DNA of 64,000 bases from OCS155 cluster bacterium AG-426-D23 (GTDB taxonomy: Bacteria; Actinomycetota; Acidimicrobiia; Actinomarinales; Actinomarinaceae), in NCBI GenBank assembly GCA_003213165.1, contig QCNO01000001.1:65152-129151 (forward strand). The letters are read 5' to 3'. The position numbers and the translations under genes are program-made. Within the stretch, counting starts at the first letter, position 1, and every line of letters starts with the position of its first letter. A model generated the notes under the pieces. That model saw only the letters and a list, made by a program, of their open reading frames with translations. It made no database searches and was not told the DNA's origin. Below, one piece after another: positions 1-63,444 of the stretch.

Positions 1-2970
1 CACAGCTGATCTTCTTGTAAGTGCTAATTCCTCAGCAAGTCCATTTACACAATCTGTTCCTTCAGGAAAATATATCGAGTGGAGATATGCTGTATCAGAT
101 GATCAAAATACCCTGGCAACAGCCCCAGCCCAAGCAGCGCTACAATCAACTGCAGTAAATTGTGACATTATTGATCCAAGTTTCTTAACATCACAAGGGT
201 CATGTAGAGACGGGACCAAAGAAGCCTACTTTTTTGCAAAGAATGGTGCTTCCGCAACATCGGATGTATATTTTCAAGTTGAATCAAAAGTTAACGGAGG
301 TGCATGGACATCTGAAAACACAGTGATTGTTGCGCCTAATTCTCAAGTGCAAATTCAAAAACCAAATCTTACAAACGCTGATACGATTCAATGGAGATAC
401 AAGACTTCCAAGGACAATGCAACCTTCTCAACAAACTATCAAGAAACGACTGTAATGACAATTTCTTGTACATCACAAAATGAAGTTGATGGTTTAATTG
501 GAAACACATGTGCATCTAATGGTTCTAAAACCGCAACAGTTACGTCCGTAAATAACAGTTCTTCAGACGTATATTATTTGATTGAGTATGCTCTCGAACA
601 AAATCCTTCAAACTGGTTATCAGTCACAGACAATTTTGGATTACCAGCTCAGGGAAGTAAAGATGATCTTGTCAACCTACCAGAGGGTAGTTACTTTACA
701 TTGAGGTATAAGACTTCTACTAGTAACAGCTTTACAGGTGTTGAGTATAAGACTTTAGATACTTTGGGACCAGTTAATTGTTCAGGTGATATTGAAGTAA
801 GAGTTGCATTAGACGCGTGTGTTAATGGTACGAGAAATTCAGTATTTTATTACCGCAATAAAGCAAGCACAGGGGCACCAGCATTTTTTGAAATTGAATA
901 TCAAATTGATGGTGGAACATGGACTAATCCAAAAGGTGCACAGACAAATAATTACTATACAGCTATACAGAATGGTGTAGAAGAATCTGTTTCAGTTTCA
1001 GTACCTTCGGATTCTACAATTTCATGGAGATATAAAGATACACTATCTGTGAATGCTTTATCAACAAAATCATTTGAATTGGCAACACCTACTCCTTTGT
1101 CAGTATTATGTGAGGGTCTTCTTGAACACACAGTTGCGATTGGATCTTGTGTTGACAGAAAAGCCTCATCAACACTTACTTTGAAAAATATTGGATCTGT
1201 TGATGTGTATGCGGATATTTGGATTAGTTATGATGGTGGAAATTCATGGAATAACCATGCAATAAGCCAGAAAGTTACAACGACTGCAGATAAGGTATTT
1301 ACTCAAAACAATATTGCGAATGGATCAATTGTTAAGTGGAAATATAAGTATGCAAGTACAGCTGCGGGTGTTGCAAGTGCTGATGAAGAACTCACGAATG
1401 ACAAACCTGCAATTAATTGTGATGAAATAGTTATTAGCCAATTAACTTATGAACATAGTTTCGCTAATTGTGTAGAGGGACAAAGGATTGGAACCTTTAA
1501 AATTAACAATCCTTCAACAACAAACAATATTGTTTATGTAGAAGTGCAATACAGAACAAAGTCATCTCTAAATGGTACTTGGTCAGGCTATACGACAATG
1601 CCTATCGAGGCAATCAATGCTGGGTCCTTTAAAGAATTTAGCGCACCTGCTTTAAATGCTAATGGTTATATTAACTGGCAATTTAGATCCTCGTTAGCTA
1701 ATAATGACTTCGCAGGAGCTTGGACAAATGCGTCATCAGCCTACAAATCTGAGTGTTCAATAGACTCAACATTTACTCATACTTTAGGTAATTGTGTAGA
1801 TGGTGAGCAGTACTCTATTTTAACCATTAACAATACCGGATCCGTTACTCAGTACTATAACGTTCAAGTACAAATCAATAATGGAACAGCAGAGACAAAG
1901 TTTGCAAATGTTGCAATCTCGTCTGGATCAAGTGGTGAGTTTAAATGGCCAATCAGACAGGGAGAGTCAATCAGATGGCAATTTATTGCATCTATAGACA
2001 CTGACTTTAGTGATGACAATTCAGTACCATCATTATCAAAGACAAATCAATGTACACCTGTCTTTACATTGCAAACTCAAACAGCCTGTCAAGATGCGTC
2101 TACAGTAAATAACAACCAAGCAACCAATACGAAGGTAACATTAACCTTGAATAACACTTCTTCAGTCGATGGAAGTGTGACTGTTCAATATAGATATTTA
2201 CAAACTGATACATGGAAGACTTTAACGACCACTCCAATTAATGCTAATCAACAAAAGACCGTTGATTACACATTGATTGATCCTTATGTTGAATTTCAAT
2301 ATGCTCCATCTGGAACTACAAATTGGACTAATAGTGGATTAGTTTACAAAATTACAAACTGCACATCAACTGGAAATAGCTTAACTGCGGTAAATGAGTT
2401 TATTTGTAGCGAGAATGATCCATTCTCTCAAGCAAAAATCTCTAACCCAACAAGTACAAGCTTGACTGTCACATATTCCTACTCATTTGATGGGGTAAGT
2501 TGGAATAATGAGACCCCAGTTTTGATAGCTTCCAACCAAACTCACTTTACGGATTTAATTCAAGTATCTCCAGGAACCCAAATTTATTGGAGATATAAAC
2601 CAACGAATCTTGCTGATGACGCCTATAAGACTTTAACTGACACATCACCAACAAACTGTCAAAATGGAACAAGTCAACAAATTCTCCATTCGCTTGGAAC
2701 TTGTGTAGATAATAAGGCGCTTTCAACTATTAAAGTTACAAATATCTCTAGTTCGCAAAAATCATACTTGCTGGAGTACAAGATAGATAATGGTGCATTT
2801 GCTCGATACGAGACTTTAGTCATCGGTGCAGGTAATGACACAACAAAGACCCTACAAATTTCAGATGGACAAAATATACAGTGGAGAATAATTGATGCAA
2901 CTAGCGATGCCTCTACTATATCTGTTGATGGTAATTGGACTTCTTCAACTTCATTAACACTTAATTGCAC
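1..2970 (+). repeat. Diverged tandem coding repeats, ~310 nt per unit and at least 10 units, inside the giant surface protein
   Basis: The first Cys codon of successive modules falls at about 161, 467, 779, 1109, 1418 ... 2966, a spacing of 306-330 nt. The protein motifs recur (C..GxC[VA][DN]G, [IV]xY..DGG.W, WRYK) while the nucleotide sequence has diverged. Confidence 0.8.
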
Positions 2971-3625
2971 AACTACTACTACAACTCTTCCTGAGAACTT
3001 ATTTATTTTCGAACCTTTAATTTCGACAAATAGGGTTTGTGATGAAGACGGTGGAGCTATGTTTGGCATTACTGTTGACAACACAAGGTCCAATGTTGAT
3101 GCAGAAGTTATTCAAAGAGTGTGGGTCGATAAATTTACAGTGTTTGAAAAACAAGAAACTATTCCAGCAGGACAGTTTATTCAGTTCTCCAGTTTTGAAA
3201 TTAGTGAAGATAAGTTTTTCACCGTAGAGTTTGAAGTTACAAATGTTAAAAACAACAAGACACAAACAATGGTTAAAAACAAGACTTCAGACTGTATTGA
3301 CAATGGAATCAGTCCGACTGACGAACAAAATCCTATTGAGGGGATAGAAGTTGAAAATATTATCGATGGAGTTGGCGATGATGAAGAAATGGGAAATAAT
3401 GGAACAGATATTTTCTTCCTTCCTGGTGATGACTTTGTTGAATGGGTATATGATGAAAATGCAACTTCTCCAAATCCAACACCACTTTGTCCTGGAGATG
3501 CCAGTTGTAATAACAATGATGGATATGCAATAACAGGAACTAATGTTGGAAGATTAATAATTTTATTTGGTTCTCTACTTATGTTGATTGGTGGGCTTAT
3601 TTTGAGGAGAGGCTATAGGTACTAG
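1..3625 (+). CDS. Giant repeat-module cell-surface protein, 5' end outside the window, with a C-terminal sortase sorting signal
   Basis: Frame 2 is open from base 2 (T-A-D-L-L...YIEWRYAVSDD...). The ORF-track start at 323 is therefore an internal GTG. There are at least 10 tandem ~104-aa modules. Each opens with a Cys-x12-16-Cys pair and ends with an I/V-x-W-[RQK]-[YF]-[KR] motif. The C-terminus is YAITG + hydrophobic helix + RRGYRY. Confidence 0.85.
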   Translation, partial: TADLLVSANSSASPFTQSVPSGKYIEWRYAVSDDQNTLATAPAQAALQSTAVNCDIIDPSFLTSQGSCRDGTKEAYFFAKNGASATSDVYFQVESKVNGGAWTSENTVIVAPNSQVQIQKPNLTNADTIQWRYKTSKDNATFSTNYQETTVMTISCTSQNEVDGLIGNTCASNGSKTATVTSVNNSSSDVYYLIEYALEQNPSNWLSVTDNFGLPAQGSKDDLVNLPEGSYFTLRYKTSTSNSFTGVEYKTLDTLGPVNCSGDIEVRVALDACVNGTRNSVFYYRNKASTGAPAFFEIEYQIDGGTWTNPKGAQTNNYYTAIQNGVEESVSVSVPSDSTISWRYKDTLSVNALSTKSFELATPTPLSVLCEGLLEHTVAIGSCVDRKASSTLTLKNIGSVDVYADIWISYDGGNSWNNHAISQKVTTTADKVFTQNNIANGSIVKWKYKYASTAAGVASADEELTNDKPAINCDEIVISQLTYEHSFANCVEGQRIGTFKINNPSTTNNIVYVEVQYRTKSSLNGTWSGYTTMPIEAINAGSFKEFSAPALNANGYINWQFRSSLANNDFAGAWTNASSAYKSECSIDSTFTHTLGNCVDGEQYSILTINNTGSVTQYYNVQVQINNGTAETKFANVAISSGSSGEFKWPIRQGESIRWQFIASIDTDFSDDNSVPSLSKTNQCTPVFTLQTQTACQDASTVNNNQATNTKVTLTLNNTSSVDGSVTVQYRYLQTDTWKTLTTTPINANQQKTVDYTLIDPYVEFQYAPSGTTNWTNSGLVYKITNCTSTGNSLTAVNEFICSENDPFSQAKISNPTSTSLTVTYSYSFDGVSWNNETPVLIASNQTHFTDLIQVSPGTQIYWRYKPTNLADDAYKTLTDTSPTNCQNGTSQQILHSLGTCVDNKALSTIKVTNISSSQKSYLLEYKIDNGAFARYETLVIGAGNDTTKTLQISDGQNIQWRIIDATSDASTISVDGNWTSSTSLTLNCTTTTTTLPENLFIFEPLISTNRVCDEDGGAMFGITVDNTRSNVDAEVIQRVWVDKFTVFEKQETIPAGQFIQFSSFEISEDKFFTVEFEVTNVKNNKTQTMVKNKTSDCIDNGISPTDEQNPIEGIEVENIIDGVGDDEEMGNNGTDIFFLPGDDFVEWVYDENATSPNPTPLCPGDASCNNNDGYAITGTNVGRLIILFGSLLMLIGGLILRRGYRY

Positions 3626-5253
3626 TGCAGTATTTTTTTGTATATCTTTTTATTATAATCCTGAATATTGTTGCAGTCCTTGCAGTCCTAAGGGTTAGAA
3701 GAAAAAGACAGAATGATCCAAATGTCATCACTGATGTTCAAGATAGTGATCTTATTTACGATTCAGATCTTGAAGACGAAGTAAAAAAACCACGCTTTTC
3801 GAGATTTTCTAGAAAAAGTAATAATTTAACTGTTGGTTTTAACGATATAGCAATAGATGATAGAGAATTTGTTTATGGAGGAGATTTACTAGACCTTGCT
3901 GTTGAAAAAGAAGTAATCAAGAAAAAGGGAACATGGTATTTATATGAAAATGAAAAGATTGCTTATGGAAAACAAAAGGCAAAGTTTTTCTTATTAGAAA
4001 ATCCTGACATCGCTAATGAGATTAGCAATATAGTTTATGGAACCATACAGGTACAAAATAATGAGATGAGTTCTGAAGAGAGTTCAGATGAAATTTCTAT
4101 AAATAACAATGAAATAGAAAATCAAAAATCTGTAAATTTACTTACACAAGAATACGAAGTTGAGCTTGCTGAAGTTTATATAAAATCAAATACTTTAAAA
4201 AAAATCATTGAAAATACAATTGGGACAGAAGTCTTAATAAGTATCGATATTGGTAAAAAATTTAATCCAGTATTAAATTCTAAAAATTACCTTACAGAAG
4301 TAACAGGCATGTTGAATGAAATGGATTACATGATTGCAGCTGTAGAAAATGTAAGTAAAAACTCAAAATATTTAGGAATCGAAGTAAATGAAGAGCTTTT
4401 AAGAGAAAGACTTAACTTATTAATGTCGAGTCGTTTTACAATTTTATTTACTAAGAAGCCAGTAAGTAAACACCTTTCTTTACCAAGTTTAAATTTCAAC
4501 AACAGAGTAAGCACAGTAACCAGACAGAAATCTGGCTATGTAACAAATAGTGGACGAAGACCTGGGATTGTTCCACTTGGACTTGGCTTATTGATAGCTG
4601 GTCTTCTAGTAATTATTTATTCAATAAGTCAAACTTTTTTCTCAATGTCAGTATTAGATGATGAGCAAAATTTACTTAGTGTCAAATATCAACAAAACCA
4701 GAATATTTCACTTGAAGAATTGCGATCTATAAATTCAAATTCTTTAGAAACAAATGTATCACTTGATGAAACAGGGGAGTTTCAAGAATCCGTTCTAAGT
4801 CTTGTTAGCAAAACAATGAGAAACACAAATGCCAATGAGGAGTTTCTTCCTGATGTTGTAGGAAGATTAATAATATTCCCATCAAATATTGACCACTATG
4901 TTGTTTACGGTTCGAGCTTAGAAAAATTAGAGTTTGGTCCTGGTTATTATCTATCTACAGCTCTTCCAGGAACGGGTGGAAATTTTGCTATTGCCGGGCA
5001 CAGAACTACTTACGGTGCCCCATTTAAAAATTTAGATAAACTTGAACCCGGAGATAACATATACTTTCAAACTAATTCAAACCAATATACATATACGGTG
5101 AGTGAGATAAAAATTGTGGATCCAAGTGAAACATATTTGTTATCTTCATTTGGAGATGACAGGATTACATTAACAACTTGTCACCCAAAATTCTCAGCTA
5201 GGCAAAGACTGGTTGTTGTAGGTATGTTGACAAAAATTGAGGTATTTGGATGA
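3625..5253 (+). CDS. Sortase (class-E-like catalytic domain) with an N-terminal TM helix and a long cytoplasmic extension carrying a RecA C-terminal-domain-like segment
   Basis: The C-terminal ~130 aa carry the sortase triad context AIAGHR ... LTTCHP ... ARQRL. TM helices lie at aa 4-22 and ~315-338. aa 81-138 resemble the RecA C-terminal domain. The GTG start overlaps the upstream TAG stop (TAGTG). Confidence 0.85.
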   Translation: MQYFFVYLFIIILNIVAVLAVLRVRRKRQNDPNVITDVQDSDLIYDSDLEDEVKKPRFSRFSRKSNNLTVGFNDIAIDDREFVYGGDLLDLAVEKEVIKKKGTWYLYENEKIAYGKQKAKFFLLENPDIANEISNIVYGTIQVQNNEMSSEESSDEISINNNEIENQKSVNLLTQEYEVELAEVYIKSNTLKKIIENTIGTEVLISIDIGKKFNPVLNSKNYLTEVTGMLNEMDYMIAAVENVSKNSKYLGIEVNEELLRERLNLLMSSRFTILFTKKPVSKHLSLPSLNFNNRVSTVTRQKSGYVTNSGRRPGIVPLGLGLLIAGLLVIIYSISQTFFSMSVLDDEQNLLSVKYQQNQNISLEELRSINSNSLETNVSLDETGEFQESVLSLVSKTMRNTNANEEFLPDVVGRLIIFPSNIDHYVVYGSSLEKLEFGPGYYLSTALPGTGGNFAIAGHRTTYGAPFKNLDKLEPGDNIYFQTNSNQYTYTVSEIKIVDPSETYLLSSFGDDRITLTTCHPKFSARQRLVVVGMLTKIEVFG

Positions 5254-6815
5254 AGTCTAAAAAATTTATTTCTGTTTTCCTCATATTTTTATTTTTTATA
5301 AATGCTGGAGATATTGAAGATGCTGAAATCAACATTTCAGCACAACGAGTTGACTCAAATGATTTAGTTATTTCCTGGTCAATGAACGAAGTTGAAAACT
5401 TACAAAATATAGTTCTGGAGGTATTATTTGAAAATCCTGAAGATGGACAAATTGAAAACCCACTAATCATTGACAATATCACAATGGACGAACTTATTGG
5501 TTCAAGAACAATTAATTGGAGTGGAGAGTCTAAATTATTCATAAAATTAAAAATATCAACATTTAATTTTGTTCAATACACGGGCGATGACTGCACTCAT
5601 ACTTTCTGTTTAAGAGAAGTTACAGAAGAGTATGAATCAGAGGAATTTATTATTGATGAAATGCCTGAAATACCAATATTAGTTCCGACTACTATTGCAA
5701 CACCCGATATCAATTTAGACGCTACAGAAGAAAGTTCTACAGTTGGTAATATCGAATTTACAAACCAATTAATAACAACTATTCCATTATTTAGTGATAT
5801 AGACTTTTCAGATCAGGCAAAAAATGCATTTGCATTTGGTATTACCTCAATGATTATATTTTTATTTTATGCTGTTCTATTAGCACAAGAATGGTTCAAT
5901 AGAATTATTTCACACTATAGAGTGAAATGGACAAGAAGAGAGAGTGTCTTACAGGAAAAAACCAGACTAGAGACATTCATGGAGATTTCATTAATGGCAA
6001 TGATTACTTCTTTGATATATGCTTTTGTTGAAGAGGGTTTTACATTTTCTGTAGAGCCACAAAATCTAGCAATATTTCTTGGTGTTTTGTTTGGGTTGAT
6101 TATTGTAACATTTTCTTATGAGGGAATTGAGTCTTTGATTGAATACTTTAAATATAATCAAAAAACAAGATTTAGTTGGAATCCGCAAGCTATGTTCTTT
6201 GCTATTTTATCCACCATACTATTTATTGTTATAGACCTTCCTTTTGGTTTTATATTAGGTTTCATAGCTTCTTTGCACATAGTTTCAAATCGTCGCCAAG
6301 CAAATCTATCACCCAAGTTTTTCTCTATGATCTCTTTGGCTATTGTCGGATATTTATTCTTCTATGCAACCTCATTTGATTCGGTACAAAATTCAGGCGT
6401 ACTAATGGCGGTTTGTAAATTGACTTACCTTATGTGTCTTGAGGGTGTCATCTTTAAAGCTGTTCCATGGGGTGGCAATGAGTTGTTTGATGCAATTGGA
6501 GATTCAAAAGGACTAAATCAAGCATTGCCTGTTGTTAGTTTTCTAATAAGTGTATGGCTGTTTATTAGAATTTTGGTATTACCTCCAGACAGTGAATTTA
6601 ATGCCATGCAGCAGACATTGTTACAAAGTGGATCATTAGCATATAGATTTGCTCTAGTTTTGCTTTTCTATATTTTGATTATTCTTATTTTAGGAAATTT
6701 CATGAAAAAATATGCTGAATTGAATAGACCTCTAGATTACGATGGCAGTGAAATTGCTTCAGATGAAGAAATAGGTGAAATTATTGAGGAAGAATTAGAA
6801 GATTCAATTCGCTAA
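5250..6815 (+). CDS. Polytopic membrane protein with a signal peptide, a ~190-aa extracellular beta-rich domain and an acidic C-terminal tail; function unknown
   Basis: ATGA overlap with the sortase stop codon. N-terminal signal peptide MKSKKFISVFLIFLFFINA. About 8-9 hydrophobic helices lie between aa ~195 and 500. The tail is DYDGSEIASDEEIGEIIEEELEDSIR. I recognise no family. Confidence 0.7.
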   Translation: MKSKKFISVFLIFLFFINAGDIEDAEINISAQRVDSNDLVISWSMNEVENLQNIVLEVLFENPEDGQIENPLIIDNITMDELIGSRTINWSGESKLFIKLKISTFNFVQYTGDDCTHTFCLREVTEEYESEEFIIDEMPEIPILVPTTIATPDINLDATEESSTVGNIEFTNQLITTIPLFSDIDFSDQAKNAFAFGITSMIIFLFYAVLLAQEWFNRIISHYRVKWTRRESVLQEKTRLETFMEISLMAMITSLIYAFVEEGFTFSVEPQNLAIFLGVLFGLIIVTFSYEGIESLIEYFKYNQKTRFSWNPQAMFFAILSTILFIVIDLPFGFILGFIASLHIVSNRRQANLSPKFFSMISLAIVGYLFFYATSFDSVQNSGVLMAVCKLTYLMCLEGVIFKAVPWGGNELFDAIGDSKGLNQALPVVSFLISVWLFIRILVLPPDSEFNAMQQTLLQSGSLAYRFALVLLFYILIILILGNFMKKYAELNRPLDYDGSEIASDEEIGEIIEEELEDSIR

Positions 6816-6821
6816 AGCTTA

Positions 6822-7604
6822 ATGAATAACAGAGCAACATGGGTGTCTTTTTCAATACTAGCTATTGGGATATTCTTGATTGTTTCATACAACAATATCT
6901 TGAGCGGTACTGCAACAACTACTACTATTCCAACAACTACTACTATTCCAACAACAACCACAACGTCTACCACAACTACAACATCTACGACAACTACAAC
7001 TACTACTATTCCAACAACAACCACAACAGTTGAGGTAACCCTAGAGAAAGATTCGGTGACTATAAATGATGATAGTCCTATAGACGTCACCCCATACGAA
7101 GGTGTATTTGTAGCTTTTGATGGATTCGAGGGTGAAAACCAAACTTTATTAGATACTTTGGTACAAAATCTTCCTGAAGTGTACAAGCAAACAATGTTAG
7201 AAAAAATATCATTTATAAATGGTTGTCACCTCTACGGGGTAGAAATGTTGGGTGAATGTCCATTCGGTGTATGGGACTCAGTAGGAACATTTAAAAATGG
7301 AGATACAAATGCTGATTGGAAATTATCGATATGGGTATCAAATAGAGCCTTTAAGGCGAATAGGGCTTTTGATACATTGCTACACGAGTCTTCACATGCA
7401 TTTTCTTACCTCAGTAGGAACTGTATTGCGCCAGATGGTTCAAACAAAAGAAAGCAGGCCCAGGAGTATTTTGGTAGTGAAGAACTTTTTGCAGATTCTT
7501 TAGTTCTCTATTTCGGTGGAGATTATGTTTTTTATCGAGAAACAGATGTTTTAACTGATACAGAGGTTAGTTACTTAAAAGAATTTATAGATCTCTGCAG
7601 CTAA
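6822..7604 (+). CDS. Membrane-anchored protein with a Thr-rich linker and a HExxH zincin-like domain (putative metallopeptidase)
   Basis: N-terminal TM anchor WVSFSILAIGIFLIVSY. About 40 aa of T/P/I/S linker follow. The motif LLHESSHAF (HExxH) is at 7383..7397, with a downstream acidic GSEELFAD. The start is 6 nt after the previous stop. Confidence 0.65.
   Translation: MNNRATWVSFSILAIGIFLIVSYNNILSGTATTTTIPTTTTIPTTTTTSTTTTTSTTTTTTTIPTTTTTVEVTLEKDSVTINDDSPIDVTPYEGVFVAFDGFEGENQTLLDTLVQNLPEVYKQTMLEKISFINGCHLYGVEMLGECPFGVWDSVGTFKNGDTNADWKLSIWVSNRAFKANRAFDTLLHESSHAFSYLSRNCIAPDGSNKRKQAQEYFGSEELFADSLVLYFGGDYVFYRETDVLTDTEVSYLKEFIDLCS
6909..7029 (+). repeat. Low-complexity ACN/CCA codon repeat encoding the linker TTTIPTTTTIPTTTTTSTTTTTSTTTTTTTIPTTTTT
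   Basis: Read directly in the sequence. The unit actactactattccaacaac recurs three times, interspersed with acaac/tctac variants. Confidence 0.9.
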
Positions 7605-7654: not shown

Positions 7655-8506
7655 ATGGAAAACTTACAGGGATTAATTGACTCGTCGGTTACTTTAAGAA
7701 CGATACCCCCAATGATTCCAGTGCTTTTTTACTTTTTAGGAACACAATCTTCTTTGGAAAGTATTCAGACTACTTTTAAAGACAGGAAAACATTGACATA
7801 TGCTTTATTATTTCAAATAATAACACTTCCAGCAATAGGTCTCATTCTTTCTCAAATTTTTAGTGATAGTATTTTTTCTTTATCAATAGCTGTAGTGCTT
7901 TTGGCTCCTGGAGGTTTTATTTCTGGTATTCTTACTCATTTTAAGGATGGCAATATTCCATTATCAGTAACACTCACTTCAATTACTTCACTTGTATCTC
8001 CTTTAACAACTGTTTTGTGGTTGAGTTTGATAAGCGTAAACTTAGATGATTTTAATTTCAATATTCTCCAGACATTTGTACAGCTAGCATTACTTATATT
8101 TGCTCCCTACATGACTGGCTTCTACCTAAATTATAAAGGAGTAAAAATAGTTAAAAAAACATCACCTTTTCTTGATAAGTTTTTAAAGATTTATATTTTA
8201 ACAATTACAATTACTGGACCATATGAACTTCGAGAACCGCTCATTAACTATTTTGGTGAAAGTATAATTTTGGTGTTTAGTTCTATTTTCTCAATATATG
8301 TTTTGCAAAACTTAACATCAAAATTAACCCAGATTAGTAGGGTCGATGATAGAACAGTGCTAATAGAGGCGCTTTGTCAAAACTTTCCAATTGTTTTGAC
8401 ATTATCAATTATCTTGAATATACCAGAAATGGCAATATTTGGAATTGTTTACTATTTAATGACATTAATTTTTGTTGTTCCATATTCATTAATCAAAACT
8501 AATTAA
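7655..8506 (+). CDS. Multi-pass membrane transporter, possibly of the bile acid:Na+ symporter (BASS/SBF-like) family
   Basis: 283 aa with ~8-9 hydrophobic helices. The LLAPGGFISGILT segment resembles the CPGG..S motif region of BASS proteins. The family assignment is tentative. Confidence 0.45.
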   Translation: MENLQGLIDSSVTLRTIPPMIPVLFYFLGTQSSLESIQTTFKDRKTLTYALLFQIITLPAIGLILSQIFSDSIFSLSIAVVLLAPGGFISGILTHFKDGNIPLSVTLTSITSLVSPLTTVLWLSLISVNLDDFNFNILQTFVQLALLIFAPYMTGFYLNYKGVKIVKKTSPFLDKFLKIYILTITITGPYELREPLINYFGESIILVFSSIFSIYVLQNLTSKLTQISRVDDRTVLIEALCQNFPIVLTLSIILNIPEMAIFGIVYYLMTLIFVVPYSLIKTN

Positions 8507-29325: not shown

Positions 29326-30108
29326 ATGGATTGTTATATTTTGAATGTGGAAAACTTTATAGCCCCTTTTGTTGATGAGGTAAAAAATTATGCTCTTGAT
29401 GGATACTATAAAGACTTCAGCATCAGGACTAAGTCAGATGGATCTGTTGTTACAGATATTGATGTTTTGGTAGAAAAGAAAATAATTAAAATATTAAACA
29501 AAGAATTTCCAAATGATTCAATTCTAGGTGAAGAAACAGGATTTACAAAAGGTACCAATGATATCACTTGGATTATTGACCCTATAGATGGAACTCGAGC
29601 ATTTTCGCAACATAAACCCGAATGGGGAGTGTTGGTTTCTAGAATAGTAAAAAATGAAATTTCAACAGGTATAGTCATTTGCCCTGTTCAAGATATTTAC
29701 ACTGCAGTTCATAATAATAAATTAATTACTTCTTCCTTTGATTATGAGCAAATCGAAGTTTCTGATAAAGAAAATTATTTGATTTCTTGCGAGGATAATC
29801 TTGATTTGTTGGATGTTTTGAGTAATGAAAAGGTTCTATTTCGTAATAAGAATCAATTTTGTAAAGACATAATCTCTTTAGGATTTTCAGCATTTGATGG
29901 TGTTATAACTTCTGCCCCTTTTGCTCACGATAGGCTTGCATATGAGCCGATTGCAAAATATATTGGTGGTACTGTTAGCACTTTAGATGGCTCTCAGATT
30001 GGAATGTTTGATGAAAATGTAGTTACATTGATATGCAAATCTGAAAAAGTTAAGAAAAATATAGTCAATGTGCTAGTCAAATTTGATTCAAAAATTAAAA
30101 TTGCTTAA
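29326..30108 (+). CDS. Inositol monophosphatase-family protein (IMPase/HisN-like)
   Basis: ILGEE and WIIDPIDGT metal-binding motifs. Confidence 0.75.
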   Translation: MDCYILNVENFIAPFVDEVKNYALDGYYKDFSIRTKSDGSVVTDIDVLVEKKIIKILNKEFPNDSILGEETGFTKGTNDITWIIDPIDGTRAFSQHKPEWGVLVSRIVKNEISTGIVICPVQDIYTAVHNNKLITSSFDYEQIEVSDKENYLISCEDNLDLLDVLSNEKVLFRNKNQFCKDIISLGFSAFDGVITSAPFAHDRLAYEPIAKYIGGTVSTLDGSQIGMFDENVVTLICKSEKVKKNIVNVLVKFDSKIKIA

Positions 30109-30124
30109 TATATTTAAAAAAAAA

Positions 30125-31156
30125 TTAACTTACGTCCCAAGTTCCTAAAGAACGTATAAGCTTATCTAATTCACCTTCACCTTTTTGTTCTTTAGCGTTG
30201 TTGATTTGATCATGAACCTCTTCGGTAAAGGTATCTCTCTGGACTTTTCTAAATACACCAAGTGGTGTTGGACCATATGGACCATGAGAAAGTCTAGATA
30301 AAGAGAAAGCAATTGATGGGTTCTCTTCATGAATGTTATGAACATAGATTTCAGATTCATCGACATCTTTTGTGTCTACAATTTGTGCGATACCATTTCT
30401 GATAACTACAGCTTTGTGTCCATCTTCTCCAAAAACTGTTTTCTCACCATGCACTAAATTAATTCTATTTGCTACTTTTGTCTCTTTATTGGTCAACTGT
30501 TCGAAGGCTTTATCATTGAAGACATTACAGTTTTGATAAATCTCTACAAAAGCAGAACCTTTGTGATTTTTAGCTTCTTCTAAAATCCCTGCAGTAAGAT
30601 CTCTATCCATATCAATGGATCTTGCAACAAAGGATGCTTCAGCACCTAATGCAAGACTCATTGGATTGAGGGGCATCTCTACTGATCCAAAAGGTGAAGA
30701 CTTGGTCTTTTTACCTTCCTCACTAGTAGGAGAGTACTGACCTTTAGTGAGTCCATAAATCTGATTATTAAACATAAGAATTTTGATGTTTACGTTTTTA
30801 CGTAATGCGTGAATTAAGTGGTTACCTCCAATAGATAATGAGTCACCATCACCAGAAACAACCCAAACAGATAAATCTGGATTTGATACTGATACACCAG
30901 TAGCTACTGCTGGTGCTCTACCATGAATTGAGTGAACACCGTATGTGTTCATATAATATGGGAACCTTGCTGCACAACCAATTCCAGAGACAAAAACTAT
31001 TTTTTCTTTTGAGATGCCCATCTCAGCCATGAAATTCTGAACGGATGCAAGGATAGTGTAGTCACCACAACCAGGACACCACTTGACCTCTTGGTCACTT
31101 TGCATGTCTGATCTTTTATAGGTGACAGGTATTTTACTCATTGATTTTTTCCTCAA
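30125..31156 (-). CDS. korB: 2-oxoglutarate/2-oxoacid:ferredoxin oxidoreductase beta subunit
   Basis: N-terminal WCPGCGDY and the TPP-binding SGDGD...GGNH motif. About 340 aa, as in actinobacterial KorB. Confidence 0.92.
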   Translation of the reverse strand: MRKKSMSKIPVTYKRSDMQSDQEVKWCPGCGDYTILASVQNFMAEMGISKEKIVFVSGIGCAARFPYYMNTYGVHSIHGRAPAVATGVSVSNPDLSVWVVSGDGDSLSIGGNHLIHALRKNVNIKILMFNNQIYGLTKGQYSPTSEEGKKTKSSPFGSVEMPLNPMSLALGAEASFVARSIDMDRDLTAGILEEAKNHKGSAFVEIYQNCNVFNDKAFEQLTNKETKVANRINLVHGEKTVFGEDGHKAVVIRNGIAQIVDTKDVDESEIYVHNIHEENPSIAFSLSRLSHGPYGPTPLGVFRKVQRDTFTEEVHDQINNAKEQKGEGELDKLIRSLGTWDVS

Positions 31157-32984
31157 TTTTATCTGTTAGTTCCTGAGCTGTAAAAGGCTCACCTGAAACT
31201 TTATTAATTCCTCGTGCATCAACTAAAAAGGCCTCTCGTACTAATTTAAGTAGTTGTCCAGTATTCAATTCAGGAATGATGATTTTCTTAAATTTTGATA
31301 TGACTTCAAGTGTATTGTCTGGGAATGGATTGATGTGAACAAAATGTGCACTTGCGACTTTGACACCTTTTTCATTTAACCTATTAACTGCTTGTGTAAT
31401 TCCTCCATAAGTTGAACCCCAACCAAGCACTAATGTATCAGCAGATTCATCGCCATAAATTTCCAACTTATCAATATCATTTGCTATGTTGGAGACTTTC
31501 CATGCTCTCATATCTGTCATATATTGATGGTTTGCCGCGTCATAAGAAACATTTCCAGTACCTTCCTCTTTTTCAAGACCACCGACTCTGTATTCTAGAC
31601 CCGGTGTACCAGGTAATGCCCATGGTCTAGCAAACGTATCTACATTTCTTAAGAATGGCAAAAAGCCATCCTCTGTGTTGAGTTTTGTAATGATATTTGT
31701 ATCTAAATTGTTTAATTCCTCAATTTTTGGAAGGTTCCATGGTTCAGAACCAGTTGCTACATAGTTGTCAGATAATAAAATTACTGGGGTCATGTACTTT
31801 AATGCAATTCTTGAAGCTTCATAAGCAGCGTAAAAAGCATGAGATGGTGATTTCGCTGCTATAACAGGAAGGGGCGATTCTCCATGCCTTCCATATAAAG
31901 CAAACATAAGATCTGATTGTTCAGGTTTAGTAGGAAGCCCTGTGGAAGGACCACCTCTTTGTACATTTACAATGACCAGCGGCAGTTCTGCAGATAATGC
32001 CAAAGATATCGTTTCACTTTTAAGAGCTAATCCTGGACCACTCGTACCTGTAACAGCAAGCTTTCCTGTAAATGAAGCACCAACAGAAGCAGCAGCAGCT
32101 GCGATTTCATCTTCTGCTTGAAAAGTAATGACATTGAAGTTTTTATGTTTTGAGAGTTCATGCAAAATATCTGATGCTGGTGTAATAGGGTAGCTACCAT
32201 AAAATAAATCTAGATTCGCTTTCTTAGCAGCAGCAATTAGACCCCAACTTAATCCTATATTTCCATTGATGTTTGTGTACTCACCTGGTGGAAGTGAAGC
32301 TTTCTCAACAACATATGTATGGTGAAATGCCTCAACAGTTATACCGAAGTTGTAACCAGTTTTTAATGCTTTAATATTAGCTTTTGCAACCTCTGGAAGC
32401 TTACCAAACTTATCATTAATCCAATTTTCTGTGTCTTCAAGAGGCCTGTTAAATGTCCAAGATATTAAACCAAGAGCAATCATATTTTTTGATCTTAAAA
32501 CCGCTCTACCTGGTAAATCAAATTCCTCTAAAGCTTCCTTGGTTAGTTTTTCCATTGGGACCTGAAATACTCTATATCCGTCTAGTTCGCCAGATTGTCT
32601 CGGATCAACTTTATATCCAGCTTTTGTAATATTTTTTTCTTCAAAAGCATCTTCATTTAAAATTAGCATTCCATTTGGAGCCAGGTCATGTAAATGGGCT
32701 TTCAAAGCAGCAGGGTTCATTGCAACTAACACATCTGGATTATCACCAGGTGTAAGGATATCAAAATCAGCTATTTGAACTTGGAATGATGATACACCAG
32801 CGATTGTACCTTGAGGTGCTCTAATTTCAGCAGGAAATGCTGGAAGTGTTGCTAAATCATTTCCAAATATTGCAGACGTGTCAGTAAAACGTGTACCAAC
32901 AAGTTGCATACCATCACCTGAATCACCTGCAAACCTTATGGTTACTGCAGGAATAGACTCAACTGTTTTGTTTTCAATTTCCAT
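31134..32984 (-). CDS. korA: 2-oxoglutarate/2-oxoacid:ferredoxin oxidoreductase alpha subunit
   Basis: Fused gamma+alpha-type domains (FAGDSGDGMQ...; GSYPITPASD...), 616 aa. Overlaps korB. Confidence 0.92.
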   Translation of the reverse strand: MEIENKTVESIPAVTIRFAGDSGDGMQLVGTRFTDTSAIFGNDLATLPAFPAEIRAPQGTIAGVSSFQVQIADFDILTPGDNPDVLVAMNPAALKAHLHDLAPNGMLILNEDAFEEKNITKAGYKVDPRQSGELDGYRVFQVPMEKLTKEALEEFDLPGRAVLRSKNMIALGLISWTFNRPLEDTENWINDKFGKLPEVAKANIKALKTGYNFGITVEAFHHTYVVEKASLPPGEYTNINGNIGLSWGLIAAAKKANLDLFYGSYPITPASDILHELSKHKNFNVITFQAEDEIAAAAASVGASFTGKLAVTGTSGPGLALKSETISLALSAELPLVIVNVQRGGPSTGLPTKPEQSDLMFALYGRHGESPLPVIAAKSPSHAFYAAYEASRIALKYMTPVILLSDNYVATGSEPWNLPKIEELNNLDTNIITKLNTEDGFLPFLRNVDTFARPWALPGTPGLEYRVGGLEKEEGTGNVSYDAANHQYMTDMRAWKVSNIANDIDKLEIYGDESADTLVLGWGSTYGGITQAVNRLNEKGVKVASAHFVHINPFPDNTLEVISKFKKIIIPELNTGQLLKLVREAFLVDARGINKVSGEPFTAQELTDKIEEKINE

Positions 32985-33001
32985 AAATATTCCTTATGAA
33001 T

Positions 33002-33193
33002 TTATTGTAATCTTTGCGGGGATAATGCAATTTCATTTTGTTGCGTTCCAACACAATTATCAATGTTTTCACCAGAACAACATTCGGCCTGATTAAGTCC
33101 GAACATTGCACAGGAGTTATTAATGCATGCAGCATGACCATGAATATATGCCATTTCGTTTTTACACCAACTACAAAACAAAGAATTACTCAT
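33002..33193 (-). CDS. Cys/His-rich 63-aa mini-protein (putative metal-binding); unknown family
   Basis: MSNSLFCSWCKNEMAYIHGHAACINNSCAMFGLNQAECCSGENIDNC contains 7 Cys and 3 His. Its ATG overlaps the sodX stop (ATGAGTAA). Its stop lies 17 nt before korA, which has an AAGGAA RBS. It fills what would otherwise be a ~200-nt gap in a compact genome. Confidence 0.55.
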   Translation of the reverse strand: MSNSLFCSWCKNEMAYIHGHAACINNSCAMFGLNQAECCSGENIDNCVGTQQNEIALSPQRLQ

Positions 33194-33686
33194 ACGCTTT
33201 GATTCTCTGATAGGGCCAATATCTATATTTTAACTTTAGGCAATCTGTTGCATTTATAGTTCCAAGGGTTCTTGAATCACTTGTTGAAAGTCTTCTCTGA
33301 TCACCCAAAACAAAAACTTCATTTTCCCCAACATTACAATCAATAAAATCATCTGTTACAGTTTTCGCCCAAGGATCCTCAATAGTCTTACCATTAACAA
33401 GGAGTTCGTTATTTGATGCTGAAATTGTCTCACCTGGTAGCCCAACAACTCTTTTTACTACATCAATGCTTTTTTCTGAATTTTTAAAAATAACAATATC
33501 ACCTCTACTTAGTGGTTCATTTGTTTTTATAGCAAGCACATAATCTTCAGGCAATAATTCTGGACTCATACTCTCTTCTTTTATTTCGTATGTTGTAAAC
33601 GATTTATTCTCTCTTTTTAAAATGACATACAATATTACAAAAAAAATTGTTTTTAAATTTATTAATCTTCCGACTGTTTTTAACAT
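33186..33686 (-). CDS. sodX: S26-family signal-peptidase-like protease, NiSOD maturation protease SodX
   Basis: N-terminal TM helix, the S26 Ser motif region (ESMSPEL) and GD.V.F...K.VKRV.GLPGE. Divergent from sodN, as in Streptomyces. Confidence 0.85.
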   Translation of the reverse strand: MLKTVGRLINLKTIFFVILYVILKRENKSFTTYEIKEESMSPELLPEDYVLAIKTNEPLSRGDIVIFKNSEKSIDVVKRVVGLPGETISASNNELLVNGKTIEDPWAKTVTDDFIDCNVGENEVFVLGDQRRLSTSDSRTLGTINATDCLKLKYRYWPYQRIKAYE

Positions 33687-33726
33687 ATTTGCTACTTCAA
33701 ATTATAATATATAAAAAAGGAGTTTT

Positions 33727-34113
33727 ATGAATTTATTTAAACCTAAAAAATATGCACACGCTCATTGCGATCTTCCTTGTGGGGTTTATGATCCTGCTCA
33801 AGCAAGAATTAATGCAGAGTCAGTTGTCAATGCATCAAAAAAATATCAGGATTCCGATGATCCTGCCTTTAAACAAAGATGCATAACTATTAAAGAAGAT
33901 ATGGCTGAAGAAGTTAAGAAAGACCTCTGGGTTCTATGGACAGACTATTTCAAACCAGAACATCTTGAAAAATTTCCTAATGTACATGATCTTTTTTGGA
34001 ATGCAACTAAGAAAGCTGGAGAAGCCAAGAAGACAGAGGATCCTGCAGTGGGTGAGGAACTTCTGAGCTTAATAAATGAGATTGACGAAGTTTTTCAAGC
34101 TACAAAAAGCTAA
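33727..34113 (+). CDS. sodN: Nickel-containing superoxide dismutase (precursor)
   Basis: The Ni-hook HCDLPCGVYDPAQAR is preceded by a 12-aa leader, MNLFKPKKYAHA. AAGGAG RBS. Confidence 0.96.
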   Translation: MNLFKPKKYAHAHCDLPCGVYDPAQARINAESVVNASKKYQDSDDPAFKQRCITIKEDMAEEVKKDLWVLWTDYFKPEHLEKFPNVHDLFWNATKKAGEAKKTEDPAVGEELLSLINEIDEVFQATKS

Positions 34114-35726
34114 TCAATTTTCTTAAAAAGGTGTCCAATATTTTCTATTTGGGCACCTTTTTTTATTTTGTTAAGAGACCAATTATTATCTGTATCTTTT
34201 TGAATTGCCTGTAAAACTTTTTCAGATGAAGTAGGCATAAACGGAGTAAACATTGTTGCAGATGCATCAATACATGTAATTGCAGTATAGAGTATTGCAG
34301 TCGCTCTTTTTTTATCCTCTTTAATTACTTTCCATGGCTCAGTTTGATTCAGATATGCATTAATTTTATTTACATAAGCCATAATCGACTGAAGTGAAGC
34401 TTTTAGTTCAACTTTCTCAATTAGACTCCCTGTGTAATCAAAACAAGCCTCAGCCTCTTCCATTAATTTTTTATCAACTTCTTCAAGCTCAAATTCGAAA
34501 TCTAAAGTATCAAAATTTTTAATGTACTGTGAAAATACTCTTTGAACTAAATTACCCCATGCTGCAACTAGCTCTTCATTATTTCTTCTAATCATTTCAT
34601 CTTCCGATATTTCAGAGTCATTTTGTTCTGGAAGTATGCTTGCCAAAGAATATCTTAATGAATCAGGATTCCATTCTTCGAGATAGTCGTTTAATGTTTT
34701 ACCAACACCTCTACTTGCTGATGCCTTTTCGCCTTTAATTAATATATATTGATTAGCTGGAACATTTGTTGGTAGATTTAAATCACCATAAGCTAACAAC
34801 ATAGCAGGCCATATTATTGCATGAAAAGGAACATTGTCTTTACCAACAAAATAATATGATTCGGCCTTTTCATCTAACCAGAAGTCTTTCCAAGCATCCG
34901 GAGTACCGTTGTTGATTGCCCATTCTTTTGATGCAGACAAATATCCAATTACAGCTTCAAACCAGACATAGATTTTTTTTCCTTCTCCGAGTTCATTTTC
35001 TGGAATATCTATTCCCCAATCGAGATCTCTTGTAATCGCTCTATCTTGTAAACCTTCTTCTACAAAAGACTTTGAAAAATTAATTACATGTGGACGCCAA
35101 CCCTGTCTACTATTAAGCCAATTTCCTAGTTTGTCATTTAATTTACTTAGTTTAAGAAAGTAGTGTTCTGTCTCTTTGAACTCTGCATTATTTCCACTTA
35201 TTTTACTTTTTGGATTTATTAGCTCTTCAGGATCTAATGTTATTCCACAACTATCACATTGGTCACCTCGAGCCTCTTGATAATTACATTTTGGACACTC
35301 ACCCTCAACGTATCGATCTGGAAGAAACTTATTCTCTTTTGCGTCATACGCTTGAATACTTTTATTTTTTTCAATATATCCATTTTCTTTGATTTTCAAA
35401 AACATTTCCTGCGATACATCTTTATGATTATCAGTCATTGTTGTTGTGTAGTTATCCCATTGGATGTTTAATTTTTTCCAATAATCTAAGAATTCACTGT
35501 GATATTTATTGACTATTTCAATTGGCTCTACACCCTCATTGTCTGCTCTAACAGTAATTGGAGTTCCATGAACATCGCTTCCTGAAACCATTATTACATT
35601 GTTGCCAATCATTCTGTTGTATCTTGCAAAAATATCAGCAGGCAAATAAGCCCCTCCAATATGACCAAGATGGCGTGAGCCACTTGCATATGGCCAAGCT
35701 ACAGCAACAAGAATATTTTTTGACAT
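34110..35726 (-). CDS. metG: Methionine--tRNA ligase (no C-terminal EMAP-like domain)
   Basis: HIGH-type motif SRHLGHIGG, KMSKS-type KASASRG and the zinc knuckle CPKCNYQ...CDSCG. Confidence 0.96.
   Translation of the reverse strand: MSKNILVAVAWPYASGSRHLGHIGGAYLPADIFARYNRMIGNNVIMVSGSDVHGTPITVRADNEGVEPIEIVNKYHSEFLDYWKKLNIQWDNYTTTMTDNHKDVSQEMFLKIKENGYIEKNKSIQAYDAKENKFLPDRYVEGECPKCNYQEARGDQCDSCGITLDPEELINPKSKISGNNAEFKETEHYFLKLSKLNDKLGNWLNSRQGWRPHVINFSKSFVEEGLQDRAITRDLDWGIDIPENELGEGKKIYVWFEAVIGYLSASKEWAINNGTPDAWKDFWLDEKAESYYFVGKDNVPFHAIIWPAMLLAYGDLNLPTNVPANQYILIKGEKASASRGVGKTLNDYLEEWNPDSLRYSLASILPEQNDSEISEDEMIRRNNEELVAAWGNLVQRVFSQYIKNFDTLDFEFELEEVDKKLMEEAEACFDYTGSLIEKVELKASLQSIMAYVNKINAYLNQTEPWKVIKEDKKRATAILYTAITCIDASATMFTPFMPTSSEKVLQAIQKDTDNNWSLNKIKKGAQIENIGHLFKKID
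34125..34170 (+). terminator. Rho-independent terminator of sodN, lying inside the 3' coding end of the convergent metG
   Basis: AAAAAGGTGTCC-14 nt-GGGCACCTTTTT forms a 12-bp stem with one G.U pair. It is followed by TTTTTTTATTTTG and starts 12 nt after the sodN stop. Confidence 0.6.
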
Positions 35727-63438: not shown

Positions 63439-63444
63439 CAACAT

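Follow-up and report, generated by a model that had tools for sequence, protein, structure and literature searches.

Organization of the locus

The window, by which we mean the whole 64-kb stretch of DNA analysed here, starts with four genes on the same (+) strand within its first 7,604 nt. Gene 1 (2..3625, +) encodes the C-terminal 1207 amino acids of a giant secreted repeat protein and is cut by the left window edge. It is followed by gene 2 (3625..5253, +), which has a GTG start and encodes a two-helix membrane sortase of 542 amino acids, by gene 3 (5250..6815, +) for a polytopic membrane protein of 521 amino acids, and by gene 4 (6822..7604, +) for a membrane-tethered HExxH protein of 260 amino acids. 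Reading frames and junctions agree with the original prediction: the GTG start of gene 2 overlaps the stop codon of gene 1 (TAGTG), genes 2 and 3 share an ATGA overlap that is conserved, and a gap of 6 nt separates gene 3 from gene 4. In all relatives of the clade to which the window belongs (type A) the gene 1/gene 2 junction is equally tight (TAATG, TAGTG, TGATG or TAAATG), and stop and start codons abut or overlap in both deep lineages. No terminator-like site was found within the four-gene block, and a scan for promoters and terminators gave nothing above the shuffled background. The 64-kb window contains no second sortase, no second protein with a sorting signal and no recA gene.

The giant repeat protein and its sorting signal

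Frame 2 has no stop between base 2 and the TAG at 3623-3625. Because it runs off the left window edge, the 1207 residues encoded here are the C-terminal part of a larger protein; relatives of gene 1 have 2881-3752 amino acids. The sequence gave no match to a Pfam family. Most of it consists of repeats (2..2968, +), with about 9.5 units of ca. 100-110 amino acids, each bracketed by a cysteine pair (C-x12-16-C; positions 54/68, 156/170 ... 886/901) and often carrying W-[RKQ]-[YF] at the unit end. The full-length relative at locus L002 has ca. 23 such pairs, mostly spaced by 100-113 amino acids. A poly-Thr spacer (2969-2986, +) leads to a conserved membrane-proximal C-terminal domain (2987-3301, +) that is present in every homologue, irrespective of whether genes 1 and 2 are split or fused (see below). 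An acidic/aromatic segment (3302..3523, +), recognized from the sequence, is located directly before the sorting motif, and related segments precede the LAxTG motif of the fused forms.

The C-terminus of gene 1 (3524..3622, +) has the layout of a cell-wall sorting signal, composed of the pentapeptide YAITG (3524-3538), a hydrophobic helix (3548-3604) and a basic tail, in the order YAITG-TNV-GRLIILFGSLLMLIGGLIL-RRGYRY. The proposal that gene 1 is a sortase substrate with its own sorting signal is thereby supported. The pentapeptide itself varies: YAITG is found in the window, LA[ADEN]TG in most clades with the fused form, and FADTG, LPVTG or MADTG in other relatives; in each case a helix and a basic tail come next.

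The sortase and its RecA C-terminal domain

About 290 cytoplasmic residues separate the two membrane helices of the gene 2 protein. Helix 1 (3631..3696, +) is followed by RVRRKRQ, and according to the positive-inside rule its N-terminus would be outside and its C-terminus inside the cell. Helix 2 (4564..4626, +) corresponds in the alignment to the beginning of the class E model, and the catalytic domain (4885..5229, +; residues 421-535) is recognized as a Pfam Sortase domain (PF04203, E 9e-31). Scores exceeded the cut-off for both PF04203 (106.7 bits, cut-off 26.6) and TIGR01076 (70.7 bits, cut-off 39.35). The catalytic triad is complete, with His459 (in AGHRTT), Cys519 (in TLTTC; nt 5179-5181) and Arg528, and matches in the PDB include SrtE1 (5cuw). 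Among the sortase classes, class E gave the best score (NF033747, 125.9 bits), which is under the cut-off of 160 bits; the sortases of the fused form reach 101-120 bits against the same cut-off, again with class E as the top-scoring class. Judged by its sequence, gene 2 is a class-E-like sortase that falls below the cut-off for class E proper.

The original prediction pointed to an unusual, putatively sensory or regulatory cytoplasmic domain in gene 2. An unusual domain is indeed present and contains a RecA C-terminal domain (residues 84-140; 3874..4044, +; Pfam PF21096, 67.8 bits, cut-off 27, E 8.9e-19), which also aligns directly to RecA chains in the PDB and is conserved across the type-A clade. 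The similarity extends along the whole PF21096 domain (model positions 1-53 of 57) and includes the positions corresponding to K286, W290, Y291, K297, G301, K302 and N312-P313 of the E. coli protein. Unlike RecA, gene 2 possesses no ATPase core, and its domain sits within a sortase and is thereby membrane-tethered. The score against the RecA recombinase model TIGR02012 is accordingly 41.3 bits (cut-off 325.3), with the match limited to model positions 267-319. We found no report in the literature of a RecA C-terminal domain inside a sortase, and its presence raises the question what role a DNA- or RecA-related module might have at the membrane. A further cytoplasmic region ('mid', residues 173-302; 4141..4530, +) has no family match and is common to the split and the fused forms.

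The membrane protein encoded by gene 3

Both the structural model and the sequence of gene 3 show the predicted leader, ectodomain, approximately 8-9 helices and acidic tail, and the ectodomain is a beta-sandwich. The AF2 model is of low confidence (mean pLDDT 59.7). The ectodomain (residues 24-135; 5319..5654, +), with strands at residues 26-135 of the model, resembles FN3 domains in Foldseek searches (probability 1.0, E 0.016-0.1, model pLDDT ca. 55-70); a Pfam fn3 match was not obtained. In a fold search of the PDB only this FN3 part gave a believable result, and no credible match was found for the membrane part. The top match of the full-length protein, HGSNAT, is meaningless (E 7.5e-3, TM-score 0.15, rmsd 27 Å). 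The gene 3 profile also matches P0426, an FN3-repeat protein of 3177 amino acids. Homology of the ectodomain to the repeats of gene 1 was considered and rejected, as P0426 is unrelated to gene 1 (BLASTP E 0.71).

Contrary to the earlier statement that gene 3 matches no family that could be named, its multi-helix membrane domain (5814..6695, +) is a divergent relative of NF041501 ('FGLLP motif-containing membrane protein'). The match is weak, at 46.6 bits against a cut-off of 150, and covers positions 19-177 of the 312-position model, whereas true NF041501 members score 190-220 bits. In the reciprocal search the gene 3 profile retrieved true NF041501 proteins, and the motifs YEG, PG..GF and LEG..F..P..G are common to both groups. 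The membrane cores are homologous, and in both groups an N-terminal extracellular domain precedes the membrane domain. On these sequence grounds gene 3 is a distant member of this named but uncharacterised family. True NF041501 proteins have variable extracellular domains, and some of them also carry a zinc ribbon or an HD-GYP-type output in the cytoplasm. The gene 3 form differs from them in being limited to Actinomarinales and in its genomic neighbours. Inspection of 80 metagenome loci around true FGLLP genes (L065-L144, mostly of high G+C content) revealed no sortase and no zincin or gene 4 relative; their neighbours are heterogeneous, the most frequent families being PG_binding_4 (4/37) and VanW (3/37). 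The literature gave no description of FGLLP proteins that is relevant to this system. Relationships to CPBP/Rce1-like, PrsW-like or exosortase-like proteins were rejected because gene 3 has no invariant His, the motifs being checked by eye.

Gene 3 ends with an acidic tail (6696..6812, +) of 39 amino acids with a net charge of -9. This tail is present in all 8 type-A loci and absent from all 18 fused-type loci that were compared. Only in the clade of the window does the RecA C-terminal domain of the sortase coincide with this acidic tail, and this co-occurrence reflects a single evolutionary event.

The zincin-like protein encoded by gene 4

The membrane helix (6837-6902, +), the poly-Thr linker (6909-7031, +; helix and linker region 6837..7031) and the HESSH motif (7383-7397) that had been described for gene 4 are all present. 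The globular domain (7131..7601, +) further contains an EE pair (7479-7484) and four conserved cysteines. Across 10 diverse gene 4 sequences, which represent all forms and a paralogue, HE[SA]xH and G[GS]EE are invariant. Block means of pLDDT in the AF2 model are mostly 70-95 over residues 104-260, with one dip at 154-166. The HExxH and EE motifs lie on model helices 182-197 and 220-230, which is the gluzincin layout, and the downstream Glu would, by this model, bind zinc. Top Foldseek matches are mostly zincins (2ejq and 3e11; probability 0.96-0.97, TM-score (target) 0.54-0.57), and others include BlaR1, anthrax lethal factor and MATCAP, all with E of at least 0.057. At the sequence level, the Pfam SprT-like family gave E 0.0046 at best, the best PDB profile match was to the ATLF-like protein 9g0j (E 0.79, spanning the HExxH…E region), and Pfam ATLF was not matched. 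The zincin-like character that had been proposed is therefore retained on the basis of the invariant HExxH…EE motif and a weak fold match. One gene 4 paralogue adjoins a PG_binding_1 protein, far from any sortase (L006 498-3898).

Conservation of the block and fusion of genes 1 and 2

The block was recovered in 55 Ca. Actinomarinales loci from species-representative genomes, in the same gene order and always between thrC and rho, i.e. within the conserved hom-thrC…rho-rpmE-prfA housekeeping cluster. The genes thus co-occur in related genomes, and the block, which had been regarded as accessory, is instead core, conserved and syntenic across Ca. Actinomarinales. Gene 3 lies downstream of the sortase-bearing gene in every locus for which the upstream flank was recovered. 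Type-C loci have a TetR gene between the fused gene and gene 3, and gene 4 is missing from four loci (L041, L043, L064 and L058).

Genes 1 and 2 are joined into a single open reading frame in at least 28 independent SAG/MAG loci, where the repeats are followed by LAxTG, a membrane helix, the cytoplasmic region, a second helix and the sortase domain. The Pfam Sortase domain is located at the C-terminus of these proteins, with TLTTC conserved in 28/28. That substrate and sortase are made as one polypeptide with an internal LAxTG in so many relatives makes it very likely that gene 2 is the dedicated sortase of gene 1, as had been proposed. The fused form is found in most of the order and split genes in the type-A clade of the window. 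The membrane domain of gene 3 has 48-50% identity when type A is compared with types B/C, and 60-63% when the fused-type clusters are compared with one another. No outgroup exists by which the split and fused forms could be rooted. We found no report in the literature of a natural substrate-sortase fusion, and no description of sortases in Actinomarinales or of this four-gene arrangement, in keeping with the earlier remark that it was not recognised as a described system.

Proposed mechanism and alternative explanations

The never-cultured Ca. Actinomarinales, whose envelope is uncharacterised, belong to the most abundant actinobacteria in the sunlit ocean (PMC7771536). The four-gene module takes a large share of their genome of ca. 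1 Mb and is probably their main covalently anchored surface structure. We consider it reasonably probable, if well short of certain, that it is a surface-display module specific to Ca. Actinomarinales, consisting of a dedicated sortase-substrate pair and the partner genes 3 and 4. The gene 1 product would be exported as a giant fibrillar protein and held in the membrane by its C-terminal signal ([YFLM][AP]xTG, helix and basic tail), after which the gene 2 sortase would cut behind the Thr and join the protein covalently to a peptidoglycan precursor. The two proteins would act as a one-to-one pair. In the fused form the helix of the sorting signal would double as membrane helix 1 of the sortase; in the clade of the window the pair would be produced from two translationally coupled genes, the sortase having its own extra N-terminal helix and the cytoplasmic RecA C-terminal domain. 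Genes 3 and 4 are co-inherited partners with putative roles. For gene 4 the most likely identity is that of a gluzincin located outside the cell on a long, Thr-rich stalk; it would trim the anchored protein or set it free, a role that ZmpI/PPEP-1 has for sortase-anchored adhesins in Clostridioides difficile. Gene 3, assigned to the FGLLP superfamily and equipped with an FN3-like ectodomain, may serve as a receptor-like membrane protein or as a scaffold, and in the clade of the window the acidic tail may bring it into contact, on the cytoplasmic side, with the RecA-like domain of the sortase. Of the self-contained display and processing system envisaged in the original prediction, the dedicated pair is supported and the accessory status is not. 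That genes 3 and 4 might process gene 1 is suggested by conserved adjacency; since Actinomarinales genomes are highly syntenic overall (PMC7771536), adjacency is weak evidence for such an action. The locus nevertheless gives a defined genetic context to two protein families without an assigned function.

The same synteny would also fit an ordinary housekeeping locus, in which gene 2 serves all LAxTG proteins as the general sortase of class-E type, with gene 1 as one substrate among others and genes 3 and 4 as unrelated envelope genes kept in place. Class E, the best-scoring class of gene 2, is the actinobacterial housekeeping class, the block is embedded in a housekeeping cluster, and gene 4 is dispensable in four loci. 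We regard this as improbable, as most of the order has substrate and sortase in one open reading frame, stop and start codons overlap or abut in both deep lineages, and the window holds no other candidate sortase or substrate. Rather unlikely, in our view, is that genes 3 and 4 are a functional unit of their own, unconnected with the giant protein and its sortase, in which for instance a sensor or transporter in the membrane works together with an extracellular peptidase whose targets are the cell wall or external peptides. The ATGA overlap of genes 2 and 3, the constant position of gene 3 behind the sortase-bearing gene and the joint restriction of acidic tail and RecA C-terminal domain to type A argue for a link with the sortase, whereas the sortase-free neighbourhoods of true FGLLP genes, the gene 4 paralogue beside a PG_binding_1 protein and the TetR gene in type-C loci would suit independence.

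A different role of gene 2 itself is conceivable as well: the sortase domain could be mainly a self-processing protease that frees the giant protein from its membrane anchor and releases it or passes it to another acceptor. In the fused forms enzyme and substrate are made one-to-one, so that a single turnover would be enough. We nonetheless hold this to be very improbable, since a complete sortase triad with the TLTTC motif is typical of transpeptidases and, to our knowledge, all characterised sortases with such signals are transpeptidases. In its favour, the cell-wall chemistry of Ca. Actinomarinales is not established (PMC7771536).

Within the preferred reading of a dedicated display module, the fusion and the type-A features can be combined into a single scheme, which we put forward tentatively as possible rather than likely. 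The fused polypeptide would anchor itself by cutting the LAxTG of its own or of a sister chain, and the enzyme would stay in the membrane through the former anchor helix of the substrate. In the clade of the window the pair would have become separated, with the sortase gaining the RecA C-terminal domain and gene 3 the acidic tail; through these two additions wall anchoring might have become connected, in a new way and on the cytoplasmic side, with gene 3 or possibly with DNA or RecA. Questions of cis versus trans sorting, and of the one-to-one coupling of enzyme and substrate, would find a clean test case in the fusion.

Comparison with known sortase systems

Class E sortases, such as SrtE1 and SrtE2 of Streptomyces coelicolor, recognize LAxTG signals (PMC5148588). 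Gene 2 shares with them the sortase fold, the His-Cys-Arg triad with TLTTC and the best HMM score, and in most of the fused clades the substrates carry LA[ADEN]TG. The Actinomarinales sortases differ in their lower scores (101-126 bits against the cut-off of 160), and gene 2 differs in its two membrane helices with the cytoplasmic insert of ca. 290 amino acids. Either this insert contains the RecA C-terminal domain or enzyme and substrate are fused, and the sorting motif in the window is YAITG instead of LAxTG. Similar to the Actinomarinales pair, SrtB-IsdC and the class GN 'marine sortase' (TIGR03784) systems have one sortase beside one substrate with a variant sorting motif. As far as we know these pairs are encoded by separate genes, whereas the Actinomarinales pair is a single open reading frame in most of the order. 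Similarity of gene 2 to TIGR03784 is also weak (69.6 bits against 158).

For gene 4, the closest functional parallel may be ZmpI/PPEP-1, an M34 (anthrax-lethal-factor-like) protease of Clostridioides difficile that cleaves and thereby releases sortase-anchored adhesins (PMC4591827, PMC8610288). In both cases a gene for a zinc metalloprotease, a putative one in gene 4, lies near that of a sortase substrate; the HExxH…E(E)xFA[DE] layouts resemble each other, and anthrax lethal factor and an ATLF-like protein appear among the fold matches and as the best PDB profile alignment of gene 4, respectively. Gene 4 differs in being tethered to the membrane by a poly-Thr stalk and in having no significant sequence match (E 0.79), and PPEP homologues have been reported only in Firmicutes (PMC8610288). 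That a conserved membrane protein can be genetically linked to a class E-type sortase has a precedent in SafA, a small membrane partner of the actinobacterial housekeeping sortase, which is fused to it in Bifidobacterium dentium (PMC9282373). SafA is small and single-helix with an FPW motif, unlike the polytopic gene 3 protein of 521 and the HExxH protein of 260 amino acids encoded by gene 4.

Genomic organization and distribution

Four genes on the plus strand occupy positions 1-7604 of the window. The reading frame of gene 1 (frame 2) is open from base 2 to a TAG codon at 3623-3625, and hence only the last 1207 amino acids of a much larger protein are visible. Gene 2 has a GTG start at 3625, giving the junction TAGTG, while the start codon of gene 3, at 5250, overlaps that gene's stop (junction ATGA) and gene 4 (6822-7604) follows after a gap of 6 nt. 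These coordinates agree with the ORFs and junctions of the original prediction. No terminator-like sites were found within the block by a terminator scan, and the promoter-like sites given by a promoter scan were not above shuffled background. The G+C content of the block (31-37%) is the same as that of the remaining window. Downstream of gene 4, an A+T-rich spacer of 50 nt is followed by a gene of the bile-acid:sodium symporter family (SBF) and by rho. Elsewhere in the window, three tRNA genes, Glu(TTC), Gln(CTG) and Glu(CTC), lie close together at 63366-63594, and the GC skew is negative (-0.06 to -0.12) at about 30000-36000 and positive in other parts; the negative stretch probably marks a block of minus-strand genes.

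The gene 3 protein is 98-99% identical to proteins from single-cell genomes of Ca. Actinomarina (OCS155 cluster), for example AG-349-A01 and AG-349-E07. A scan covering one genome per GTDB species revealed gene 3 relatives at 55 loci, all of them from Actinomarina/Actinomarinales save a few contigs evidently mis-binned into other taxa. Since an exhaustive search with a profile against 1.84 billion representative proteins gave only 128 matches with few full-length relatives, the family is essentially confined to Ca. Actinomarinales. Contigs with the module were encountered in MAGs that carry the labels Anaerolineales, Gammaproteobacteria, Flavobacteriales, Methanobacteriota, Aliarcobacter and Pelagibacteraceae (loci L013, L016, L018, L022 and L061; database protein P0360), which probably reflects contaminated bins among public genomes. 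At all loci with recovered flanks, thrC is found upstream and (SBF)-rho-rpmE-prfA downstream. The block had been described as the only clearly accessory one in the window, but this constant position between thrC and rho makes it a core, syntenic element. The four genes co-occur in related genomes as expected, and in the same order across relatives, except that gene 4 is missing from four loci (L041, L043, L064 and L058).

Among the relatives the module varies in gene organization, and three layouts can be distinguished. Type A, the layout of the window, has the order gene 1, sortase with RecA C-terminal domain (RecA_C), gene 3, gene 4, SBF, rho; it accounts for 15 of the 55 genome loci, with gene 3 proteins at least 62% identical to that of the window. 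In type B the giant protein is fused to the sortase and the fused gene is followed by gene 3, gene 4 and rho, and in type C a TetR regulator gene stands between such a fused gene and gene 3, followed by gene 4, (SBF) and rho. The TetR-family protein has about 205 amino acids (PF00440, E 7e-07); examples are L030 (7317-7943), L035 (7305-7928) and L044 (7305-7928), with about 25 more loci, and the gene is absent from the window and from type B loci. The SBF gene (7655-8506 in the window), located between gene 4 and rho, also occurs in type A and some type C loci, is absent in type B, and probably does not belong to the module. The membrane domain of gene 3 is 48-50% identical between type A and types B/C, and 60-63% between B and C. 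With no outgroup available, either the split or the fused state may be ancestral.

The contig CALSSQ010000001.1 (about 1.0 Mb, MAG AA_MB45) harbors several modules in tandem, one of type C and one of type A among them, comprising L059 (191702-209060) and L056 (210370-227856). The order is the end of a sortase gene, TetR, a fused giant/sortase gene, TetR, gene 3 and gene 4, then a minus-strand surface protein gene, TetR and a type A module with a frameshifted gene 3. Either types A and C are old paralogues or the AA_MB45 assembly is chimeric.

The giant protein and the sortase

The visible part of gene 1 encodes about 9.5 repeats of 100-110 amino acids, and a longer relative has about 23. A pair of cysteines spaced 12-16 residues brackets every unit, and many of the units terminate in W-[RKQ]-[YF]; the repeats match no Pfam family. 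They are followed by a poly-Thr spacer, a C-terminal domain of about 105 amino acids that is conserved and was found in all homologues, an acidic/aromatic segment and the sorting signal, which consists of YAITG, a hydrophobic helix of 19 residues and RRGYRY. At the position of YAITG the relatives most often have LA[ADEN]TG, and otherwise FADTG, LPVTG or MADTG. Class E sortases recognise LAxTG (PMC5148588).

The C-terminal part of gene 2 is a sortase (PF04203, E 9e-31) with the catalytic residues His459, Cys519 (in TLTTC) and Arg528. The best NCBIfam class is class E, at 125.9 bits under the cut-off of 160 (the fused forms likewise score under it), and S. coelicolor SrtE1 is among the closest solved structures. 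The catalytic domain is preceded by an N-terminal helix, the sequence RVRRKRQ, about 290 residues and a second helix; the positive-inside rule predicts a cytoplasmic location for these 290 residues. A large and unusual cytoplasmic domain had been anticipated here, and residues 84-140 indeed match the RecA C-terminal domain (PF21096, 67.8 bits against a cut-off of 27, E 8.9e-19). They align directly to the E. coli and mycobacterial RecA chains, and the domain is well conserved in the type A clade, retaining E. coli residues K286, W290, Y291, K297, G301, K302 and N312-P313. Judged by its sequence, this is a genuine RecA C-terminal domain. After it comes an acidic Ser/Glu-rich stretch, and in RecA itself an acidic stretch likewise follows the C-terminal domain. 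A second conserved cytoplasmic region (residues 173-302, here called mid) has no family match.

An uninterrupted ORF for giant protein and sortase was seen 28 times in independent single-cell and metagenome assemblies, one example being L035 (828-7301). In ORFs that include the N-terminus it starts with a signal peptide; then follow the repeats, the C-terminal domain and LA[ADEN]TG or MADTG, and after the motif come a hydrophobic segment (usually about 22 residues), a basic cluster of the RKRK type, mid, the second helix and a complete sortase domain with TLTTC. The Pfam Sortase domain was detected at the C-terminus of both fused ORFs scanned. The fused forms lack RecA_C. That two proteins are fused in relatives is a classic sign of joint function, and the occurrence of a single ORF in 28 relatives makes it very likely that gene 2 is the dedicated sortase of gene 1, as originally proposed. 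The fusion also accounts for the odd first helix of the type A sortase, which sits where the anchor helix of the substrate lies in the fused forms.

The giant protein would be exported and then held by its sorting signal, whereupon the adjacent or fused sortase would cut after the threonine and transfer the product to a peptidoglycan precursor, the putative acceptor. We consider this core step likely on the basis of domain identity, motifs and fusion. In the fused forms the membrane-retained product would be Gly-helix-mid-helix-sortase. With substrate and sortase on one chain the enzyme is made one-to-one with its substrate, and it could work in cis or on neighbouring chains.

Sortase-mediated display itself is well known, and in that sense the finding is not categorically new. 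No description was found in the literature of a natural substrate-sortase fusion, of a sortase containing a RecA C-terminal domain, of any sortase system in Actinomarinales or of the four-gene arrangement, which the original prediction had also not recognised as a described system.

The membrane protein

Gene 3 encodes a leader, a β-sandwich of about 110 amino acids, a disordered linker (Thr/Pro-rich in relatives), about 8-9 helices and a cytoplasmic tail. The β-sandwich is FN3-like (Foldseek probability 1.0, with weak E-values and a mediocre model). The membrane domain, the most conserved part of the entire module, had been assigned to no family; it is a distant relative of NF041501 (FGLLP motif-containing membrane protein). 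Its score on that model is 46.6 bits, where the cut-off lies at 150; conversely, a search with the gene 3 profile finds proteins with 190-220 bits on NF041501, and the motifs YEG, PG..GF and LEG..F..P..G are common to both. In true members, the membrane domain is preceded by lectin/CBM-like, CarboxypepD_reg, PPC or β-propeller extracellular domains, and in some it is followed by a cytoplasmic zinc ribbon or HD-GYP-type domain, an architecture that by its domain order is that of a receptor or sensor. No mention of the family was found in the literature, and the neighbours of true FGLLP genes elsewhere were uninformative on function. The database protein P0363 (1226 amino acids) ends in a membrane domain of the gene 3 type (E 7e-122), preceded by a far longer ectodomain than that of gene 3, which contains an FN3 domain and matches C-type lectins weakly.

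Candidate partners of the sortase RecA_C domain are the gene 3 tail, DNA or RecA. In type A the tail has 39-41 amino acids and a net charge of -6 to -10 (all eight proteins examined), whereas all 18 proteins of types B/C end 6-13 residues past the last helix. The acidic tail is thus found precisely in the clade where the sortase acquired its basic RecA_C domain. This suggests that the two may be in contact in the cytoplasm, although the coincidence amounts to a single evolutionary event. It is proposed with low confidence that gene 3 is coupled to the sortase and acts as a scaffold or receptor.

The zincin-like protein

In the gene 4 protein, a poly-Thr linker of 40-80 amino acids connects an N-terminal membrane helix to a domain of about 160 amino acids. 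The motifs NGCH, HE[SA]xHA and G[GS]EE are invariant, and four cysteines conserved, in all three types and in a paralogue. The domain model has block-mean pLDDT values mostly of 70-95, with a dip around residues 154-166, and places HExxH and EE on two helices in a gluzincin-like manner. The top Foldseek matches are mostly zincins, including the minimal zincins 2ejq and 3e11 (probability 0.96-0.97) as well as BlaR1, YbeY, anthrax lethal factor, Certhrax and MATCAP, none with E below 0.057. In a profile search of the PDB the best match was an ATLF-like (anthrax-lethal-factor-like) protein at a non-significant E of 0.79, with an alignment spanning HExxH through the EE helix, and Pfam gave weak SprT-like matches only. 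The invariant motifs, and weakly the predicted fold, thus support the expected membrane-tethered, Thr-linker, zincin-like protein, while assignment to a named peptidase family is unsupported by Pfam, PDB profile search or Foldseek.

The loci without gene 4, three of which (L041, L043 and L064) belong to the LANTG subclade, retain the fused gene and gene 3; directly after gene 3 come SBF and rho, or TetR in the case of L058. Gene 4 therefore cannot be essential to the core reaction. A functional precedent is ZmpI/PPEP-1, an ATLF-like metalloprotease of C. difficile that cuts adhesins anchored by sortase and controls how far they are exposed at the surface (PMC4591827); reports of PPEP homologues are to date limited to Firmicutes (PMC8610288). 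It is proposed only tentatively that gene 4 acts as a protease in trimming or release. Finally, locus L006 encodes a gene 4 paralogue of 254 amino acids (498-1259) in which HExxH and EE are kept. It adjoins the gene for an 842-residue PG_binding_1 protein (1370-3898), both being located upstream of hom-thrC, and this neighbour may point to the cell wall as a target of the zincin family.
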